Under the pieces are notes generated by a model. That model was not told the DNA's origin. It did not search any database and saw only the letters and a list, made by a program, of their open reading frames with translations. This document shows, one piece after another, positions 2,787 to 30,628 of a stretch of DNA of 32,000 nucleotides. The translations under genes and the position numbers were made by a program. Positions within the stretch are counted from its first letter, which is position 1. Every line of letters starts with the position of its first letter. The stretch comes from Sutcliffiella rhizosphaerae (GTDB taxonomy: Bacteria > Bacillota > Bacilli > Bacillales > Bacillaceae_I): NCBI RefSeq assembly GCF_917563925.1, contig NZ_CAKJTJ010000009.1:77118-109117 (forward strand), written 5' to 3'.

Positions 2787-3113
2787 AATAGCTTTTTGAA
2801 AAGTTGATTTCGATTTTTTCTCTAGAAGCCTTGTGCTGCAAGATGTTAAGAATTTCTTAATCAAACGTTTGTTTGAAAAAACCTATTGTAGAATAGAGGT
2901 TTGTGTCGATTCTTGTTGATATTAGTCGCGTTTGTGAATTATACCACTACACCTTTTTTAAAAGTTAATTTCTCAAAAAAACTTATCAACCTTATAGCAA
3001 TAAGGATTAGCCATTACTATTAATCGGACGTTCGTTTGAAAATTACTATCTTAAAAAATCATAGATCTGTTACTAATTCACGTGCTGCAGTTTGGAATAT
3101 TGGATTTCACTTC

Positions 3114-3281
3114 ACCTTTCGAAGCATCCGTAAAACCATTCGTGTTCTTTTGGAAAACTTTGATGGTGTTCTGCAAACCTTTCAAGGTGTTTCACGAACC
3201 TTTGATTGTCTTTCGCAAACCTTTGAAGGTATCACTCGTACCTTTGATGCTAACTCGCTAACCTTTCGAGGTCCACGCGTG
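3114..3281. repeat. Tandem array A: 8 units of exactly 21 bp
   Basis: Cores (acctttc, accattc, aactttg, acctttc, acctttg x3, acctttc) start at 3114, 3135, 3156, 3177, 3198, 3219, 3240 and 3261. Plus-strand consensus is AACCTTTGA/CCTTTCGA. On the minus strand it reads CMTCRAAAGGTT. A degenerate unit (tttggaatat) lies at 3093. Confidence 0.9.
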
Positions 3282-3365
3282 ATCTCCATCACATGGGCTC
3301 ACTATGTTCTCGAAAATAGCCCTATTAAAAAAAGCCCTCACTTCAAAAGTGACGGCTTTTTCATT

Positions 3366-4013
3366 TTATTTACTATCTACTAATAATAGGACTTCCGGTT
3401 TATTTGCGTTATTTACGACAAATATACTATATACTGTGTTTTTATCAAATTTCTTCCGAGGTAAGTCTAGAATTTTTTTCCCATCCGTTGTGGTGATCTC
3501 CAAAGCATATTTGCCAGGCTTAAGTTGCTGATATACGGTAATATCTTTGAATGCTACTCCTGTAAATAGTTTGTTCTCTTTTTTGATACGTACATCGACT
3601 TTTGGTGCATCTGGTGAAAGATGTCCCAATCGGACTAGTGTTTTTCCTTTTGGCGCTTTTGTCGTATCTTCCACAGCAATTAATTCTAAGGAGTTCAGCT
3701 TATTAACAGCAGCTAACGTGTAAAATTTCCCGCCATCGAGCGATAGCTCTCTTGAAATAATTGCCTTGTCCTTAGTACCCGCCGGAAAAATCTCCAATTT
3801 ATGTGCACCAGATGCAATTGGGAGGTATTTCGTTGCATCTTTAAATTTAGCCCCACTTACAACTGCTTTATTGTCTATATAAACATCGACAGCTTGTGCA
3901 TCGGGTGAAGCATGCAAAATTCGAACTTTCGCTTCTTGTGGAGCAGCATAGGCATTATTCAGACAACTAAATAAAAATAGGAAAACCAAACTTACACTAA
4001 CTAATTTTTTCAT
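3366..4013 (-). CDS. Secreted DUF4397 domain protein with two internal repeats
   Basis: 215-aa ORF with an N-terminal signal peptide (MKKLVSVSLVFLFLFSCLNNAYA). It has two copies of the (V/L)R(I/L)xHxSPDAPxVDV... module typical of DUF4397. The SD AAGGAG precedes the ATG. Confidence 0.75.
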   Translation of the reverse strand: MKKLVSVSLVFLFLFSCLNNAYAAPQEAKVRILHASPDAQAVDVYIDNKAVVSGAKFKDATKYLPIASGAHKLEIFPAGTKDKAIISRELSLDGGKFYTLAAVNKLNSLELIAVEDTTKAPKGKTLVRLGHLSPDAPKVDVRIKKENKLFTGVAFKDITVYQQLKPGKYALEITTTDGKKILDLPRKKFDKNTVYSIFVVNNANKPEVLLLVDSK

Positions 4014-5753: not shown

Positions 5754-5916
5754 AAATATTGTTTATTTAATATAGAAAGAAAAATTGCTGGCTATAGACA
5801 GGATAGGACAAACACAAAATTGTGCTAATTATCCGACATTTAATCAAAGGTTATATGTATGCTTTAGAGCATATGATTTTGCCAAAGAAGTTCGAAAGCA
5901 GGTATATGTTTTGGAC

Positions 5917-6063
5917 GAAAATAGTGATAAAGCTAGGCAAAATATCTAAAAATGTTGTGAAAATATCTAAAAACGTTGTGTATTTATCGATAAATGCTGT
6001 GAAAATATCGATAAGTCTCGGGAATATATCAATAAACACCCTGAACATTTCGATACCATCTAA
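5917..6063. repeat. Tandem array B: 7 units of exactly 21 bp, plus-strand consensus GAAAATATCGAWAA+N7
   Basis: Units start at 5917, 5938, 5959, 5980, 6001, 6022 and 6043 (for example caaaatatctaaaaatgttgt and gaaaatatctaaaaacgttgt). The 14-nt core is essentially the same as array E read on the opposite strand. Confidence 0.9.
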
Positions 6064-6096
6064 ATTTATGGTATTTTCCTTTCATTGGAGCACACC

Positions 6097-6132
6097 AAAA
6101 AGCCTACTATTCAAGAAAATAGTAAGCTTTTT
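6097..6132 (-). terminator. Rho-independent terminator after the camS/yerH-like gene
   Basis: Stem agcctactatt / aatagtaagct with one G-U pair on the minus RNA, followed on the minus strand by UUUUUGG. It abuts the stop at 6136-6138. Confidence 0.7.
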
Positions 6133-6135
6133 ACT

Positions 6136-7296
6136 CTAATAAATATGCACAAACGGTTTTTCAGCACCGGCATCTCGTACGACCAGGGCTTCCTGACCAC
6201 TGATGGAAGAGATGGATACTTGTAGATTGATATAGTTAGGGAAATGCTCTAGCAATAGTCCTGTTACATATTGAGTGAAGCCGATAAGCTCCGCCTTACC
6301 GTTGAATTCCATATTCACTTCAATAGCTAGCTGTTGGAGCTCGCCGTCTTGATAGTACCCTTTTCCGACTACACCCGTATGGTTAGGGAAGTAGTCATCA
6401 ATATCAAGCTTAAAGTTTTCGAAACGAACGGCATCCTCTCTATATAGCTCGGTTGTTTGACGATTTGGGAAAAGACGGTACTCTTCCTTCACTTCATCCC
6501 ATCTTCCAATTGTGCCATCGCCTCCCCCAACAGTAGCTTGAGCAATAAAGTTTCCAGGCACGATGGAATTGGCAGGGCTTTGTTTGTATAGACCGATAAT
6601 AACTGGAACATTGGCAAGGCCTTCCATGTTACGAATACGCTTCAAGACTTCCTCAGCAATTCTCTTACCTTCTTGCTCTATTTGTTCATCTGGAATAGTA
6701 TACTCCCTTGGGAAACCACCTTCATTTGCTGTGAGATTATAATAATGGACAGAGTTAAGGGCGATACCTATCGCTATTCCGCCAAGTTCTACTTGATCTT
6801 CGCCGCGGCGGATCAGGTAATTTTGCTCTTGAATATGAGCAAGAATAATTGGGCTGTTTTCATTTGTTTCTTCAGTGTCTTCTCCTTCAACCAATGGCGG
6901 ATTCAATCCTTGGCTGTCCTCATCACTTGGATCCACTCTATTTAGCCATGAACGGACAACATCTCGTTTGATGTATTGCCCTTCCTGATATAAATAGTTC
7001 TCAGAAGGGAATACATCTTGTGCCATTCGCATCAGGCCGGTTTCGAGTTCTTCCACATCCACCCTACTGCTTAAGCGCGGAGCGATTTGACCACGGGTTT
7101 CTCCTGGCTTATAGGGAAGAATGGTTTGATAATAATCATCTGATATTTTATATCTTGGGACAATGGCTTGTTCCATATTTTCTTGTTGCGCTGGATCTTG
7201 CACCACTTCTTCCTGTCTTTCAAATCCTGGCACACATCCAGTGGCAAAGAGGGAAACAACAAGGAGCAACGATAAAAACCTTTTCACTTCCAACAC
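6136..7296 (-). CDS. camS: CamS-family sex-pheromone/lipoprotein (YerH-like)
   Basis: The lipobox LFATGC follows a signal peptide. The gene sits immediately downstream of ligA, as yerH does in B. subtilis. The track start is GTG at 7296. The GTG at 7287 (MKRFLSLLL) is better spaced from the SD AAGAGGTG and may be the true start. Confidence 0.75.
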   Translation of the reverse strand: MLEVKRFLSLLLVVSLFATGCVPGFERQEEVVQDPAQQENMEQAIVPRYKISDDYYQTILPYKPGETRGQIAPRLSSRVDVEELETGLMRMAQDVFPSENYLYQEGQYIKRDVVRSWLNRVDPSDEDSQGLNPPLVEGEDTEETNENSPIILAHIQEQNYLIRRGEDQVELGGIAIGIALNSVHYYNLTANEGGFPREYTIPDEQIEQEGKRIAEEVLKRIRNMEGLANVPVIIGLYKQSPANSIVPGNFIAQATVGGGDGTIGRWDEVKEEYRLFPNRQTTELYREDAVRFENFKLDIDDYFPNHTGVVGKGYYQDGELQQLAIEVNMEFNGKAELIGFTQYVTGLLLEHFPNYINLQVSISSISGQEALVVRDAGAEKPFVHIY

Positions 7297-9321: not shown

Positions 9322-11586
9322 CTATCCTTGAACTTTCGTTACAGGTGCAAATTTTGCCAATAGCCGTTTAATACCGGTCGGACTTGGAAAAGCGATATCA
9401 AGTTCCTTACTGTCGCCTTCCCCTTTTACACTTACCACTGTTCCGATGCCCCATTTTTTATGTTCCGCTTTGTCACCGACCATCCAATCCAAACTTTCTC
9501 CGCCTGTGGACTTTAACGGACGTGTAGGTGTAGATGCTCGACGTGGGTTTGCAGGCGCAGCTGCAGCTCTTCCTCCACCAAACGGGGTGGACGTTTGCGT
9601 TCTGTTGCCAAATGGAGTTGGGCGGGATTCCGTAATAACTAGACTTTCTATGAGCTCTTCTGGTATTTCTTTTATAAATCGGGATGGGGGATTGATATTG
9701 GTTCGACCAAATAATGTCCGCAGCTGCGCATTTGTAAGGAAGAGTTCTTCTTCTGCACGGGTAATTCCTACATAGGCTAGGCGGCGCTCCTCTTCCATTT
9801 CCGCTTCTTCAAATAAGGAGCGGCTGTGCGGGAAGACACCCTCCTCCATACCAATTAAAAATACTACCGGAAACTCCAATCCTTTCGCCGCGTGAAGTGT
9901 CATTAAAATGACCCCTTCCTGCTGGGCGGCATCCTCTTCATCTAATTTGTCTATATCTGCCACAAGGGCTAGATCTGTTAAAAATGCCACAAGACTTTTG
10001 TCATCGTATTTTTCTTCAAAATTTTTCGTAACAGATAGGAATTCATCAATATTCTCTAGTCTGCTTTGTGATTCAATGGTTTTGTCCGCCTTCAGCATGT
10101 CACGGTAACCAGATTTTTCGAGTACTTCCTCCACAAGTTCAGTGACCGATATATATTCCTGCATTTGTACATAATTCTCAATTAAGGAACGGAACTCCTT
10201 CAACTGAGAAGTCGCTCGTCCACTGACACCAATGAGGTCCACTTCTGCAAGAGCCTGAAAAATAGATATGTCATGCTCTGTTGCATAATTTGCAATTTTA
10301 TCAACAGTCGTCGCTCCAATTCCTCGCTTTGGAACATTAACAATACGCTGCAGACTAATATCATCGTCCGGATTAGCTATTAAGCGTAGATATGCCAGGA
10401 TATCTTTAATTTCTTTACGGTCATAGAACTTTGTCCCGCCTACAATCGTGTAATTGATATTGGACATGAGGAGCATTTCCTCCATTACCCGCGATTGAGC
10501 GTTTGTCCGATAAAGAATGGCAAAATCACCTAGAGTTCGTTTAGGATTCTTTTGCATTAGTTCTCGCATTTTTCCAACAACAAATTGCCCTTCCGATTTC
10601 TCAGAATCGGCTTGATAGTGGACAATTTTTTGCCCTTCATCGTTTTGTGTCCATAGGTTCTTCTTTTTTCGGCTAATATTGTTATCAATCACACGGTTTG
10701 CCGCTTCAAGTATGCGTTTAGTGGAGCGATAGTTCTGCTCAAGTAATACAACCTCTGCTTTTGGATAATCTTTTTCAAAAGAAAGGATGTTGGCAATATC
10801 CGCCCCACGCCAGCGATAGATGGATTGATCGGAGTCCCCTACTACACATAGATTTTGCAAGCGATCTGCAAGTAAATTTACGAGCGTATACTGCGCACGG
10901 TTCGTATCCTGATATTCATCAACATGAATATACTGAAATTTACGTTGATAGTACTCAAGCACTTCAGGCACCCTTTTGAACAGATGGATGGTAGACATAA
11001 TCAAATCATCAAAATCCAGAGCCTGATTTTTCTTCAGCCTTTTTTGATACTCTGTGTAGACCTCGCTCACTTGCTGTTCATAAGGTCCCAGTGGCTGCTT
11101 CGCATATTGCTCTGGGTTGAATAGCTCGTTTTTCGCTGAGCTAATCGTCCCTAAGATTGTTCTTGGTTCAAATTTTTTCGGGTCAATATTGCGGTCTTTT
11201 AAAATACTTTTTATAACCGAAAGCTGATCGGTACTGTCTAGTATCGTAAAATTGCGATTGAAACCAATGCGATCAATATCTCTTCTAAGAATCCTAACGC
11301 ACATGGAGTGGAAAGTAGATATCCAAATATCTTCCGCAGCTGGGCCAAGTATAGTTTCCACACGATCTTTCATTTCACGTGCTGCCTTATTCGTAAAGGT
11401 AATCGCTAAGATATTCCAAGGCGCTATTTGTTTTTCCGCCATTAAATAAGCAATCCGGTGCGTTAACACCTTCGTTTTGCCACTTCCCGCTCCAGCCATG
11501 ATCAATAATGGTCCATCCGTTTTCTTTACTGCTTCCTGTTGCATTGGGTTTAAGCCCTCAAGCAGCCTTTGACTTAAATATTGCAT
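9322..11586 (-). CDS. pcrA: ATP-dependent DNA helicase PcrA (UvrD/Rep superfamily 1)
   Basis: The N-terminus ([37 protein letters not shown]) is nearly identical to B. subtilis PcrA as I recall it. Walker A, DEYQDT and the remaining SF1 motifs are present. Confidence 0.95.
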
Positions 11587-16818: not shown

Positions 16819-18217
<1,399 letters not shown>

Positions 18218-18224
18218 TTATTTT

Positions 18225-18470
18225 TGTTACCGTGATTCGGACAAATTTAACTGGGATTTGGACAAACCGGTTGGTGTGTCGGACATTTATACTGGGATTT
18301 CGTTAGCGGTATAGGTTTCGGACATTTATCCCAGGAATTCAAATATATCTGCATGTATTTTGGTCATACCTTGGGGATTCGGGCTTATTTCCAAGTAATT
18401 CAGACATTCACCATGAATTTCGGACATATCGGCAACTTTTTCGGACATAGCTCCATGAATTTCGGACAAA
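18225..18470. repeat. Tandem array D: about 12 units, 21-bp period, inside the purH|purD gap
   Basis: 8-nt cores (ttcggaca and variants) start at 18236, 18257, 18278, 18299, 18317, 18338, 18359, 18378, 18399, 18419, 18440 and 18461. Spacings are 21, 21, 21, 18, 21, 21, 19, 21, 20, 21, 21. On the minus (pur-sense) strand the core reads ATGTCCGAAA. Confidence 0.9.
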
Positions 18471-18516
18471 CTGACTTCATCTGTCTGTCTCTACCTCAAG
18501 ACCGCCCCGCCCCATA

Positions 18517-20046
18517 TCAATGTTTAAAATGTCTCATACCAGTAAACACCATTGTGATGCCATATTCATCTGCTTTTTTGATGGAATCCTCATCTTTAAT
18601 AGAACCACCAGGCTGGATGATTGCTGTCACGCCAGCTTTTGCAGCAGCTTCCACCGTATCATTCATTGGGAAGAATGCGTCAGATCCAAGGGCAGAGCCT
18701 ATTCCTTTATCGCCAGCTTGCTCAATCGCAATTTTTGCTGCACCGACACGATTCATTTGACCAGCGCCGACTCCTACTGTTTGACCGTCTTTTGCAAGAA
18801 CAATTGCATTGGACTTCACATGCTTCACCACTTTCCAAGCAAGCTTCAAGTCTGCCCATTCTTTTTCGGTCGGTTCTCGTTTTGTTGGAATGGTTACTTC
18901 CGCTTGCTCTAGGCCAGCCTGGTCCTCATCCTGCACTAACAGACCGCCTCGAACAGAGACAATGCGTGATGTTTTTGCGTTTTCTCCTCCCATATCAACA
19001 ACTAAGAGGCGAAGGTTTTTCTTTTGCTTTAAGACTGTTAATGCCTCTTCCGTAAAGGCAGGGGCAATGATGATTTCTAAAAATAATTCATGTAATAATT
19101 CAGCTGTTTCCTTGTCCACTTCTGTGTTAAAAGCGATGATTCCCCCAAAGATGGAGATGGGATCTGCTTCATACGCTCGGCGGTATGCCTCCACCACACT
19201 TGCCCCAGTTCCAACTCCACATGGGTTCATATGCTTTACTGCTACAGCAGCAGGATCTTTAAACTCTTTTACAATCTGAAGAGCTGTATCTGCATCATTG
19301 ATATTGTTGTATGAAAGCTCTTTGCCGTGAAGCTGTTCAGCAGATGCGATGGAAAAATCAGATGTTACAGCTGTTTGGTAAAATGCCGCCTGCTGGTGTG
19401 GATTTTCTCCATAACGTAATCCTTGCTTTTTCTCAAACGTAACAGTAAATGACTCGGGGTGCTTTTCTTCCACCGCTTCAGTTAAGTAGTTTGAAATCAT
19501 TGCGTCATATGCTGCAGTGTGGCGAAATACCTTTGCTGCTAAGCGACGACGAGTTGCGACTGCTACCTTTCCGCTTTCTTTTAGCTCAGAAACAACATCT
19601 TCATAATCGGCAGGATCCACTAGTACAGTTACATCTTTATGGTTTTTTGCTGCTGCACGAAGCATCGTTGGACCACCGATATCAATATTTTCAATGGCAT
19701 CTTCAAAGGTTGAGTCAGCTTTAGAGATGGTTTCTTTAAATGGATAGAGGTTTACTACCACTAAGTCAATAGGTGTTATCCCATGTTCACTTAACTGAGC
19801 TTGGTGGCTTTCATTGTCACGCATCGCTAGTAACCCACCGTGAATCATTGGATGCAACGTCTTTACGCGACCGTCTAAAATTTCAGGAAAGGTTGTAACA
19901 TCAGAAATTCCGATAACCTGCACTCCGCTCTCCTGTAAAACCTTTTTCGTTCCGCCAGTAGAAATGACTTCTACACCTAATTCAACCAATTGCTTTACAA
20001 ATGGGACAATGCCCTCTTTATTAGAAACGCTTACTATTGCTCTCAT
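18517..20046 (-). CDS. purH: Bifunctional AICAR transformylase / IMP cyclohydrolase
   Basis: 509 aa with an MGS-like N-terminus (ALVSVSNK-type, STGGT). The start overlaps the purN stop (ATGA). Confidence 0.95.
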
Positions 20047-21679: not shown

Positions 21680-21716
21680 AAAAGCGACGAATATATAAAT
21701 CCCCGCCGCTTTTTTT
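21680..21716 (-). other. Terminator-like hairpin between array E and the purM SD
   Basis: The minus-strand RNA reads AAAAGCGGCG, a 14-nt loop, CGUCGCUUUU (one G-U pair), then CUAUU. It ends about 6 nt before the purM SD. The plus-strand version carries a T7 run. Confidence 0.35.
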
Positions 21717-21752
21717 GTTTGTGATTTTCTTTCTAGGTTTATTAATGATGTT

Positions 21753-21920
21753 GAATGACCGTTTGCTTATATTCGGGTCCTTTTCGATGGGCAGACCCGC
21801 CTTTTCGATATTTTCGTGCGGGTTTTTGATATTTTGGACACGTTTTTGGATATTTTCGTATCGCTTTTAGATATTTTATGGACCTTTTTCGATATATTCA
21901 TCCGCTATTTCGATATTTTC
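21753..21920. repeat. Tandem array E: 8 units of exactly 21 bp inside the purF|purM gap
   Basis: Cores (tttgctta, ttcgatgg, ttcgatat, tttgatat, ttggatat, ttagatat, ttcgatat, ttcgatat) start at 21762, 21783, 21804, 21825, 21846, 21867, 21888 and 21909. On the minus (pur-sense) strand the unit is GAAAATATCGAAAA+N7. Confidence 0.92.
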
Positions 21921-21977
21921 AAAAATCCCGGCTTATTTCTTTTCTGTTGTCAATGAGCAATTATCACCCAATAGCCC

Positions 21978-30397: not shown

Positions 30398-30452
30398 CAT
30401 CGCATAGAAAACAGACACATCGCCATGAAAAACATAGATAGTGCAAACTTCC

Positions 30453-30522
30453 CCTCATAGTCCGATCCATTTAAGGTGGTCAGGTAGAGACTTATGGGCC
30501 ATATTCCCAAAATTATATGAGG
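30453..30522 (-). promoter_or_regulatory. Purine riboswitch aptamer, guanine class (C at the discriminator, GACUAUG)
   Basis: The minus RNA is CCUCAUAUAAUUUUGGGAAUAUGGCCCAUAAGUCUCUACCUGACCACCUUAAAUGGAUCGGACUAUGAGG. It matches the G-box consensus (P1 CUCAUA/UAUGAG, UAUAAU, GGAUAUGG-like L2, CUACC, UAAAU L3) and closely resembles the B. subtilis purE leader as I recall it. Confidence 0.88.
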
Positions 30523-30550
30523 TTTCGTTATTTCATTGTTATCTACGTCT

Positions 30551-30579
30551 ATTTTATCGTCAAAATCCTTGGATGTCAA
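30551..30579 (-). promoter_or_regulatory. SigmaA promoter of the pur operon
   Basis: On the minus strand: TTGACA (30579-30574), a 17-nt spacer, then TAAAAT (30556-30551), about 30 nt upstream of riboswitch P1. Confidence 0.75.
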
Positions 30580-30628
30580 CGAAAATCATGAACAATAATC
30601 TGTTATCTTTTGTTAATGTTCGGGTTTT
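30575..30628 (-). promoter_or_regulatory. Putative PurR operator (PurBox-like sites in inverted orientation)
   Basis: The minus strand reads AAAACCCGAACATTA (30628-30613), close to the PurBox consensus AWWWCCGAACWWT. Weaker inverted partners lie on the plus strand (GTCAACGAAAATCA at 30575-30588, overlapping the -35, and ATGAACAAT at 30588-30596). I did not check spacing against the B. subtilis operator. Confidence 0.5.

Follow-up and report, generated by a model that had tools for sequence, protein, structure and literature searches.

The closest described counterparts of the repeat array analysed here are iterons, such as those of R6K, pPS10, F, P1 incA, the lambda origin and SPP1 oriL. These are tandem direct repeats of ~17-22 bp, each combining a conserved core with a spacer free to vary, with a period of ~20-23 bp (approximately two helical turns), four to more than ten copies, and a sequence specific to each replicon. 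A similar spacing characterises the operators of LytTR-type regulators, such as AgrA, ComE, PlnC and YpdB, which are imperfect direct repeats of 9-10 bp, 11-13 bp apart and 21 bp from centre to centre, occurring in twos or threes just upstream of a -35 element. Direct repeats are also bound head-to-tail by MerR-like winged-helix proteins of the BldC and Xis type. The protomers of BldC, an actinomycete protein, sit one turn (9-10 bp) apart; its optimised site is the direct repeat (AATTCGGACA)n, and its sites vary in repeat number (PMC5859096). In Bacillus, the targets of RemA at the eps and tapA promoters are poorly conserved, repetitive AT-rich direct repeats that are periodically protected and thought to wrap an octameric ring, and the RemA dimer resembles a LytTR domain (PMC8481266). 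Finally, dispersed intergenic repeats, such as REP/BIME, the STAR elements of Staphylococcus aureus and MITEs, are species-specific, occupy several permissive intergenic sites, are patchily distributed, and evolve in concert within a genome.

Array D, which fills most of the purH-purD spacer of Sutcliffiella rhizosphaerae, shares features with these systems. It is an old tandem array that does not code for protein, and it either arose in or was inserted into a junction at which the pur operon accommodates additional DNA. It is the longest of the arrays within the window, by which we mean the whole 32,000-nucleotide stretch of DNA that was analysed, as had been proposed from the sequence alone (Table 1).

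Table 1. Coordinates of the arrays in the window and of the parts of the purH-purD spacer.
Feature	Position	Strand	Description
Array D	18225..18470	(-)	12 head-to-tail units of 19-21 bp; core plus ~11 nt unconstrained spacer
purH-proximal block, units 1-3	18409..18470	(-)	Best preserved; only part scored by Tandem Repeats Finder
Decayed middle, units 4-7	18327..18408	(-)	Cores TGTCTGAA, AGCCCGAA, TGACCAAA, TATTTGAA; one 19-bp unit
purD-proximal block, units 8-12	18225..18326	(-)	Cores TGTCCGAA, (TAA-CGAA), TGTCCGAC, TGTCCAAA, TGTCCGAA
Unique G-rich leader, purH stop to first unit	18471..18516	(-)	
Unique spacer, last unit to purD	18167..18224	(-)	purD Shine-Dalgarno AGGAGG at 18174-18179
Weak sigma-A-like match	18217..18244	(-)	TTGTCC-16-AATAAT, 9/12; sole pur-sense match in the gap
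Array E, purF|purM gap	21794..21921	(-)	6 units of 21 bp, core GAAAATATCGAAAA
Array B, camS|aldehyde dehydrogenase gap	5917..6062	(+)	6 units of 21 bp, core GAAAATATCGATAAA
Array A	3150..3275	(+)	6 units of 21 bp, core AACCTTTGAAGGT; between two convergent terminators

According to the ORF table, purH stops at 18517 and purD begins at 18166, leaving a gap of 350 bp. The conserved core reads TGTCCGAA on the pur-sense (minus) strand, equivalent to TTCGGACA on the plus strand. This gap contains five exact copies of TTCGGACA and the rest of the 32 kb a single one, against 0.9 expected over the whole window, and six copies were reached in none of 100 dinucleotide-preserving shuffles. Allowing up to one mismatch, the gap holds eight cores (at 18236, 18257, 18278, 18317, 18399, 18419, 18440 and 18461), compared with 0.27 expected and a maximum of four in 5000 simulations under a first-order Markov null. 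The decayed cores at 18298, 18338, 18359 and 18378 bring the total to 12 units with a mean period of 20.5 bp, and autocorrelation peaks at lags of 21, 40-42, 60-61 and 81 (z 3.9-4.3). Hence the array is real, as the original prediction had it: the seven near-exact cores first noted were recovered, an eighth (ttcagaca) was added, and the middle units are indeed decayed, with deletions of 1-2 bp. Decay is severe in four of the 12 units, and Tandem Repeats Finder scored only the best three (18411-18468), meaning that most of the array has decayed beyond standard detection. The 90% identity of units 1 and 3 points to a probable recent duplication of two units (42 bp), and units 11 and 12 are 76% identical. 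The leader starts with GGGGCGGGGCGGT, which can be aligned to the equivalent site in L248, the closest relative that bears an array, and it contains a small hairpin predicted to pair with the first unit. At the other end, the sigma-A-like match draws its -35 part from the last core and its -10 part from unique flank.

Conservation between units is concentrated in the core. Pairwise identity is 0.68 in the core and 0.37, near random, in the spacer, a contrast somewhat inflated by anchoring the alignment of units on the core. Only approximately eight columns are truly repeated, and these are contiguous (TGTCCGAA in the pur sense; contiguity p = 0.004), while unit length holds at 19-21 bp despite the randomised spacers. 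The uniform decay along the unit expected of a neutral minisatellite is therefore not seen in this core-anchored alignment; rather, the combination of a contiguous conserved core, random spacers and a maintained unit length is the pattern to be expected of sites under selection. Gene conversion among units could nevertheless keep the cores alike, and scramble the spacers, without selection. Because 42-bp higher-order units confound the test for heterogeneity within arrays, the analysis relied on the between-species and contiguity tests alone. The distribution of A/T versus G/C along the array also shows a strong periodic component at 10-10.25 bp (p < 0.001).

With 12 direct repeats at a mean spacing of 20.5 bp, array D is comparable to iterons in its architecture, copy number and individual sequence. 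It differs in lying within a housekeeping operon, where its neighbours are purH, purD and other housekeeping genes, and the window contains no initiator, DnaA-box, AT-rich unwinding context or mobile-element genes. Searches of PLSDB and INPHARED found nothing similar to the array. Phage contigs do contain arrays of 20-23 bp period with cores like those of D or of E and B, one E/B-like set lying inside a replisome-organiser-like ORF that adjoins a DnaC-like loader. The D core, as a repeat spaced at 19-23 bp, gave at least 120 matches in viral contigs against 57 for a single composition-matched control, although this count was inflated by one prophage family and by 10-bp-spaced triplets beside integrase genes; the enrichment was set aside as weak evidence.

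The spacing of the LytTR family is likewise reproduced by the D unit of an ~8-10 nt core and ~11 nt spacer, but D has 12 units and no convincing promoter, rather than two or three repeats just before a -35 element, and no LytTR regulator gene was found in the 32-kb window. A literature search for the 8-mer led to BldC/Xis-type sites, in which an AT-rich tract is followed by 4 bp and then C, as in AATTTCGGACA, GATTCGGACA and GATTTGGACA on the plus strand of D. This likeness is a lead and not a test, and the D cores lie two turns (19-21 bp) apart rather than one, the ~10 bp A/T periodicity being present without a second core. That periodicity also resembles RemA targets, which differ in having 7-bp protections with 3-bp gaps and little specificity, whereas in D a specific, GC-containing core recurs every 21 bp, with no known RemA-type promoter downstream of the array. 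The E/B family, and another shared by loci L250 and L257, behave like dispersed intergenic repeats, whereas no second locus is known for D; all these arrays differ from such elements in being head-to-tail, in keeping strictly to a two-turn period and in lacking a palindromic hairpin. CRISPR arrays have repeats of 23-50 bp alternating with unique spacers of comparable length, together with cas genes or a leader. A CRISPR array was rejected, the whole D unit being 21 bp with a core of ~8-10 nt, and no cas genes being found in the window.

Kinship between arrays was assessed by a permutation test comparing unit profiles circularly on both strands, across 91 array pairs. The positive control, E-B, ranked first of the 91 (p < 1/300), whereas D-E (p = 0.30, rank 48) and D-B (p = 0.19, rank 27) were unremarkable. 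On the original prediction's own criterion this refutes the kinship of D with E, and the earlier view that D is of one family with E and B is not supported. Array E shares D's class of architecture but is of a different sequence family; array B belongs to E's family, in the opposite orientation relative to its flanking genes; and array A is of the same architectural class as D, with a third core. Array B is flanked by a terminator and a promoter and may go untranscribed altogether. Curvature as predicted from wedge angles ranks E and B among the highest 0.1-0.4% of the window, whereas D and A lie near its average, and intrinsic curvature was therefore rejected as a property common to the arrays.

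The pur operon of the window has three non-overlapping junctions, purB|purC (57 bp), purF|purM (301 bp) and purH|purD (350 bp), which match the break points reportedly separating purEKB, purCSQLF, purMNH and purD in B. subtilis. Array D therefore does occupy a natural break point, as was proposed, and such junctions are permissive, since in relatives the same gaps hold either unrelated 21-bp arrays or a GC-rich MITE-like element. At purH|purD, unrelated 21-bp arrays are found in Mesobacillus, Ureibacillus and two other Sutcliffiella, and S. horikoshii has the MITE-like element instead of an array. However, the description of D and E as lying in the operon's only two large gaps reverses cause and effect: of 45 related loci, 22 have a purH|purD gap of just ~12-30 bp, while the gap measures 31-33 bp in both Bacillus sp. 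THAF10 and S. halmapala, and 105 bp in S. deserti. Hence the two gaps are large because arrays lie in them. Nor is targeted insertion supported, as outside the genus arrays occur at roughly 3 of 45 purH|purD and 3 of 45 purF|purM junctions, near a background roughly estimated for these loci at ~4% per intergenic gap. A function tied to sub-operon boundaries is likewise not supported, as the sister family also occurs away from the operon, at camS|aldh, where it is oppositely oriented.

Array D itself is dispensable, as close relatives have a short gap or MITE-like element in its place. The nearest other PurD is 84% identical to that of S. rhizosphaerae. No conservation of D's sequence was found in other species, and the purH|purD arrays of L020, L035, L248 and L253 have cores other than D's. 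Those of the L248/L253 lineage are TATGAMGGGATT arrays, in which homology with D was undetectable (z = 0.2 and 1.3). As four-fold sites are saturated between the window and all relatives (identity 0.33-0.43), sequence neither supports nor counters orthology of D with these two arrays.

Array D nevertheless falls into a wider class. Among tandem arrays of 50 bp or more in the Bacillaceae loci, almost every one repeats at 20-21 or 42 bp although the cores are unrelated, and the class is defined by a 20-21 bp period, often with a 42-bp higher order. D is intergenic and non-coding, with this period, an array-specific core and a variable spacer; the other members are A, B and E of the window, and arrays at loci L001, L012, L013, L016, L018, L020, L031, L033, L034, L035, L044, L248-L254, L257 and L258. 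A literature search for a described or named class of such arrays found nothing. Between species, the orthologous purF|purM arrays of four species have invariant columns at 42 of 48 core and 16 of 36 spacer positions (p = 3.5e-5), and the purH|purD arrays of L248 and L253 are 0.91 identical in their cores and 0.78 in their spacers (p = 0.04). Within genomes, a genome-specific core can be common to two loci in opposite orientations, as in E and B of the window (z = 5.4) and in the L250 purF|purM and L257 camS|aldh arrays (z = 6.5), whereas comparisons of the same locus between genomes gave z near 0. This independence of orientation argues for a role of the DNA, and not the RNA.

The reading that we favour, to which we assign a probability of roughly 0.4, is that array D would be a phased row of same-face binding sites for a putative DNA-binding protein, grown by 21- and 42-bp slippage. 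Each unit comprises a conserved core of 8-10 nt (TGTCCGAA in the pur sense, AATTTCGGACA on the other strand) and a free spacer of ~11 nt, and since a core every 20.5 bp corresponds to two helix turns, all face the same side of the duplex. The array would then act at the DNA level, presenting a row of sites to a putative direct-repeat-binding protein, in the manner of plasmid and phage iterons, LytTR operators and BldC/Xis-type sites. It would gain or lose one or two units (21 or 42 bp) at a time, through slippage or unequal exchange, and might conceivably influence purD expression as a roadblock or as added untranslated spacer. We infer such binding in a window that encodes no candidate binding protein, and the four decayed units, the dispensability of the array, the lack of a second D-type array in the 32 kb and a predicted absence of curvature, unlike E and B, all count against it. 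Almost as likely, though itself tentative, is a functionless minisatellite, neutral or selfish, that began as a 21-bp duplication in a tolerant spacer, was extended by slippage or unequal exchange, and has since decayed as an inert spacer of the pur mRNA; the shared 21-bp period would then stem from founder arrays spread by segmental copying, with gene conversion keeping the cores alike. Like an ordinary variable-number repeat, D has head-to-tail copies, decayed units with small deletions, and recent 42-bp higher-order duplications visible at both ends. Its patchiness among close relatives, with 31-33 bp or a MITE-like element in the same gap, fits this history, as does Sutcliffiella sp. CP152003, in which a whole array and its short flanks have been copied to a second locus, and the failure to find a partner gene in the window. 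Arrays are also conserved no better than other intergenic DNA, which is 0.82-0.91 identical between L248 and L253; four-fold sites (0.54-0.63) therefore overstate neutral divergence, and were dropped as a neutral yardstick for selection on arrays. Yet a minisatellite does not account for non-uniform decay that leaves contiguous conserved cores, random spacers and a kept unit length, nor for core columns being invariant between species far more often than spacer columns. Slippage alone also does not predict that a 20-21 bp period should recur in unrelated arrays of many genera.

The remaining alternatives place the function elsewhere than in a dedicated row of DNA sites. One is an RNA-level element, an A/C-rich unstructured platform within the pur mRNA, at which a protein or small RNA might bind the repeated UGUCCGAA, or which might serve as a decay or Rho-entry spacer setting the PurD:PurH ratio. 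The array does lie inside an operon, in a gap without a terminator; its RNA is less structured than shuffled sequence (MFE z = +1.47); and the sense strand is rich in A in most arrays that separate co-directional genes. However, the E/B sister family occurs in both orientations relative to neighbouring genes, B being possibly untranscribed, while a 21-nt period has no known RNA-binding rationale, yet equals two turns of DNA. With D's sequence also unconserved in other species, this idea is unlikely. The conserved structured RNA raised as an alternative by the original prediction is equally not seen, as Rfam matched no family to the array (best E-value 4.1), the only match above the gathering threshold in the window being a purine riboswitch at 30438-30540. 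Binding by PurR, loading onto weak PurBox-like sites as a PRPP-sensitive roadblock or sink before purD, is suggested by the location in the pur operon and by the TCCGAA of the D core, which contains the CCGAA at the centre of the PurR operator, reportedly AWWWCCGAACWWT; by a rough estimate, a given 5-mer would fall within an 8-nt core by coincidence ~1% of the time. The window's own promoter has a PurBox (AAACCCGAACATT, 30615-30627) ~35 nt upstream of its TTGACA. PurBox identity was nonetheless rejected, as no D unit comes within two mismatches of AWWWCCGAACWWT inside 18167-18516 and matches across the window are at chance (22 observed, 25.7 expected). In addition, the D cores are all direct repeats, rather than an inverted pair with a 16-17 bp spacer, and other cores occupy the same junction in L020, L035, L248 and L253, making PurR loading very improbable. 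Similarly doubtful in the extreme is that D provides or boosts a promoter for purD. The gap has its single sigma-A-like match (9/12), and the purF|purM units of S. horikoshii tile into GTTACA-17-TACAAT three times, against 0.5 expected, but tiling the D unit gives a sequence that, on either strand, resembles a promoter less than 99% of shuffled units do, and a 6-kb scan around D gave four promoter-like matches where shuffles gave 12.6. A tandem-promoter geometry, with one octamer repeated every 21 bp doubling as -35 and -10, holds only for the S. horikoshii-type arrays, the only ones among 18 that score as promoter-like, and was rejected for D. The least credible alternative, with next to no chance of being right, is that the arrays are small peptide genes, encoding heptad repeats such as MKSVCPKFMELCPKKLPICPKFMVNV or MSEIHGAMSEKVADMSEIHG..., given that 21 bp is seven codons and ORFs of 22-47 codons cross parts of D. 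No reading frame survives units of 19-21 bp, as those of 19 and 20 bp shift the frame and stop codons occur in all three phases, and no Shine-Dalgarno is evident in the sequence before these ORFs. Those spanning arrays A and B matched no Pfam family, and those through the purF|purM arrays of relatives have no conserved start or end. Coding, including readthrough of the purF stop codon into the array, was rejected, as the frames are inconsistent between species.

Taken alone, array D is no more than a small curiosity of a housekeeping operon, and its value lies in the class to which it points. The Bacillaceae 21-bp arrays, D included, could constitute an undescribed system of genome-specific, two-turn site families with a trans-acting protein, although we think this rather unlikely. 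In such a system, arrays may be seeded at permissive intergenic sites, with the loci of a genome kept alike by co-evolution with the protein. One version would be a chromosomal iteron decoy, titrating the initiator or recombination-directionality protein of an invading phage or plasmid; this would be a natural, single-copy analogue of the PER resistance that cloned origins confer against dairy phages (PMC6356513). By analogy with RemA or LytTR proteins, another version may be a loading platform for a ring-forming nucleoid protein. For annotation, such arrays inflate operon spacers and yield spurious ORFs of 60-115 codons. If a protein does read them, they would represent a new regulator, nucleoid-organising or defence system in a well-studied bacterial family; if nothing does, they would be a clean case for understanding why bacterial minisatellites settle on a 21-bp unit.

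Array D, in the purH-purD spacer, belongs in decayed form to an architecture class, the intergenic arrays of Bacillaceae with a period of two helical turns. Five exact copies of its core TTCGGACA (plus strand) lie within the array, against 0.9 for the whole window in dinucleotide shuffles, and the eight cores with at most one mismatch compare with 0.27 expected and a maximum of four in 5000 simulations. The autocorrelation peaks at 21, 40-42, 60-61 and 81 bp, and Tandem Repeats Finder detects only the three best units. Therefore the original prediction's description of D holds, being correct in all checkable detail, including the decayed middle and small deletions. In the pur sense (minus strand), the unit reads (T/A)ATGTCCGAAAT followed by ~10 nt, with true conservation limited to positions 3-10 (TGTCCGAA). 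Pairwise identity between units is 0.68 in the core and a near-random 0.37 in the remainder, a contrast in which the core is somewhat favoured by the units having been cut at their cores for alignment; the conserved columns lie side by side (p = 0.004). A strong 10-10.25 bp harmonic marks the A/T-versus-G/C pattern (p < 0.001). Identity is 90% for units 1 and 3, 74% for units 8 and 10 and 76% for units 11 and 12, so each end grew recently, by one or two units.

The class emerged from running Tandem Repeats Finder on the window and all Bacillaceae loci retrieved, considering arrays of at least 50 bp. Nearly all repeated every 20-21 bp, in many cases with a higher order of 42 bp, and had unrelated cores; the loci sampled all come from around the pur region and, with some of the arrays being orthologues, about 20 are independent. 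The few Bacillaceae exceptions had periods of 25, 31, 34, 52, 121 and 157 bp, and loci from outside the family had others (7, 13, 14, 18 and 24 bp). Literature searches turned up no published account of such a 21-bp array class. Among the few arrays lacking this period is a 52-bp tandem repeat in the yerC-pcrB spacer of the S. horikoshii clade.

Arrays and associated features (window coordinates unless a comparison locus, L-number, is named)
Feature	Position	Description
Array A	3150-3275	core AACCTTTGAAGGT; 21-bp period
Array B, camS-aldh (aldehyde dehydrogenase) gap	5917-6062 (plus)	core GAAAATATCGATAAA; 21-bp period
Array D, purH-purD gap	18225-18470	12 units, head-to-tail, 19-21 bp each
Array E, purF-purM gap	21794-21921 (minus)	core GAAAATATCGAAAA; 21-bp period
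20-21-bp class		window A, B, D, E; L001, L012, L013, L016, L018, L020, L031 (two arrays), L033 (27 copies of 20 bp), L034, L035, L044 (three arrays), L248-L254, L257, L258 (25 copies)
Very long class member, Bacillus sp. THAF10	L258 8212-8737	25 units of 21 bp, 3' of camS
Very long class member, Siminovitchia sediminis	L033 7352-8007	27 units of 20 bp, 3' of purD
Sutcliffiella sp. CP152003, purF-purM array	L250 6330-6455	core AAAAGTCACAATAA
Sutcliffiella sp. CP152003, camS-aldh array	L257 8213-8338	core AAAAGTCACAATAA, opposite orientation
52-bp yerC-pcrB repeat	L256 869-1124; L001 11191-11382	~5 copies of TCTATACGCCCGAACGGTGGGAAAAACCCCATGAAAAGTCTAATAGAAGGGC
Array-spanning ORFs	3036-3383 (+); 5822-6139 (+); L249 6400-6591	63-115 codons
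purH-purD spacer	purH stop 18517, purD start 18166	350 bp
purH-purD gap, Bacillus sp. THAF10 (L252), S. halmapala (L254)		31-33 bp, without insert
purH-purD gap, S. deserti (L255)		105 bp, no array found
purH-purD gap, Bacillus sp. CHD6a (L001), S. horikoshii (L249), Sutcliffiella sp. (L250/L251)		216-250 bp, GC-rich MITE-like element
purH-purD gap, L248, L253		346-371 bp; 21-bp arrays with core TATGAMGGGATT, the two being clear orthologues
purH-purD junction, Mesobacillus maritimus (L020)		unrelated 21-bp array, core TTTGTAGAGTAAAC
purH-purD junction, Ureibacillus yapensis (L035)		unrelated 21-bp array, core AAATCGCAAATAGA
MITE-like element	L001 about 5834-5950; L249 9859-9945; L250 about 9825-9930	GCGGGAGGTAGCGGTAGACTTGAGACCCCACAGCGCAG...GGAAAGCGAAC
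Start of MITE-like element	L250 907-925, 16382-16400	purB-purC and pcrB-pcrA gaps
Purine riboswitch	30438-30540	ahead of pur operon
pur promoter region	30578-30627 (minus)	good PurBox AAACCCGAACATT, 1 mismatch
purM-upstream hairpin	about 21690-21730 (minus)	AGCGGCGGG-N(about 12)-TTCGTCGCTTTTC
Same hairpin, S. halmapala	L254 1216-1243	immediately 3' of purF stop, upstream of array
Prophage triplets (IMG/VR; L090, L119, L147, L153, others)	about 613-641	ATGTCCGAAA / TGTCCGAAA, three copies, 10-bp spacing
Phage iterons (IMG/VR)	L236 2919-3011; L241 9455-9547; L243 3955-4047	five 20-bp iterons, GGTTTTYGATATT, E/B-like core

The original prediction had also placed D in one family with E and B. When unit profiles were compared in all 21 registers on both strands, E and B were the most similar of 91 array pairs (p < 1/300), whereas D-E (p = 0.30, rank 48/91) and D-B (p = 0.19, rank 27/91) were at chance level, the very result that the prediction had named as refuting it. 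D has the architecture of E and B, not their sequence, and no second D-type array lies within the 32-kb window. A wedge model predicts that B (5917-6036) and E (21801-21919), which carry A-tracts about every 10 bp, are within the top 0.4% and 0.14% of the window for curvature respectively; A and D are predicted to be uncurved. Some arrays are spanned by ORFs, because one frame of the 21-bp unit is often free of stops. These ORFs have no Pfam match and are probably annotation artefacts; the one in S. horikoshii (L249) has been called as a gene in its public record.

Unit for unit, the purF-purM array is orthologous across four S. horikoshii-clade species, with 42/48 columns invariant in the core versus 16/36 in the spacer (p = 3.5e-5), and identities of 0.92 and 0.70 respectively. 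The L248 and L253 purH-purD arrays are similarly 0.91 identical in the core versus 0.78 in the spacer (p = 0.04); unusual constraint on the arrays as wholes is not claimed, as other intergenic DNA between these loci is 0.82-0.91 identical, with four-fold sites at only 0.54-0.63. Window arrays E and B, 16 kb apart, share one core in opposite orientations, as do the CP152003 pair, which are collinear unit by unit with common flanks of ~12 nt 5' and ~35 nt 3'. Cross-locus similarity within one genome is high (z = 5.4 for E-B, z = 6.5 for L250-L257), whereas the same locus compared between the window and other genomes gives z near 0. This combination of likeness within genomes and difference between them means that arrays are either copied between loci, or homogenised by conversion or a shared reader. 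The camS-aldh array is absent from S. horikoshii CP082918.

A Bacillus-type pur operon, purEKBCSQLFMNHD, runs along the minus strand of the window; its PurD is 100% identical to that of Sutcliffiella rhizosphaerae, with the next-closest at 84%. Ahead of the purine riboswitch, a PurBox lies ~35 nt upstream of a TTGACA -35 element, and hence the operon appears to be under dual control by PurR and riboswitch, as in B. subtilis. About 25 nt 5' of the purM start, the Sutcliffiella loci inspected (window, L001, L248-L250, L252 and L253) share a hairpin, with an identity of 0.93 across four species matching that of the array cores; it looks like an attenuator, processing site or stabiliser. The purH-purD gap is at most 30 bp in 22/45 related loci, and is large in the window because the array occupies it. 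This junction accepts various inserts because it is one of three at which pur genes do not overlap, bearing out the proposal of a permissive intercistronic site; targeted insertion of D, proposed alongside it, is not supported. One such insert, the MITE-like element of the S. horikoshii clade, has its start repeated in two other gaps of the same genome. No similarity between D and the L248/L253 arrays is detectable, and as four-fold sites are saturated between the window and every relative (identity 0.33-0.43), this comparison neither shows nor excludes a common origin.

D resembles known kinds of sequence, iteron-like or minisatellite arrays. We favour, at a probability of about 0.4, a DNA-level row of same-face sites for a putative direct-repeat-binding protein, which would have grown by 21/42-bp slippage; that D is a functionless minisatellite is nearly as probable. 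An RNA-level platform is unlikely: the orientation independence of E/B-type arrays points to DNA over RNA. A structured RNA is rejected: transcribed in the pur sense, the gap folds less well than its shuffled versions do (z = +1.47), and an Rfam search of the gap returned nothing below E = 4. Nor is the array a terminator. An internal promoter would be surprising, with the sole promoter-like match in the gap being weak (TTGTCC-16-AATAAT, 18244 to 18217) and the tiled unit scoring below 99% of shuffled units for promoter likeness, and an equally improbable PurBox-like sink must contend with D not being a PurBox array. Peptide genes are barely credible, as 19- and 20-bp units shift the frame, stops occur in every frame, and the repeat generates the short ORFs incidentally.

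Iterons and LytTR operators combine a ~10-nt core with a free ~11-nt spacer, repeated every two helical turns, and the layout of D is like theirs. A literature search with the D 8-mer found that the optimised site of BldC, (AATTCGGACA)n, which is bound head-to-tail (PMC5859096), is close to the plus-strand reading of D, although spaced at 10 bp rather than 21 bp. The D 8-mer also recurs at 10-bp spacing in prophage triplets immediately downstream of a tyrosine-integrase gene, which are likely to be Int or Xis sites of the arm type, while other phage contigs have 22-23 bp arrays with the D core. The GGTTTTYGATATT iterons lie within a replisome-organiser-like (DUF6291) ORF that precedes a gene for an IstB/DnaC-like ATPase (loader), and look like a phage replication origin. 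For RemA, a Bacillus protein that binds DNA on a ring, the sites are AT-rich, periodic and "poorly conserved, repetitive" (PMC8481266). These likenesses serve as leads to the kind of mechanism, not as evidence of membership; the window contains no gene for an initiator, a LytTR protein or a small winged-helix protein, and the D sequence was absent from the plasmid and phage records searched.

The interest of these observations rests not on D alone, but on the array class and its cross-locus concerted evolution, in which, as seen for E/B and CP152003 and not for D, the array core changes between species while staying alike across the loci of one genome.
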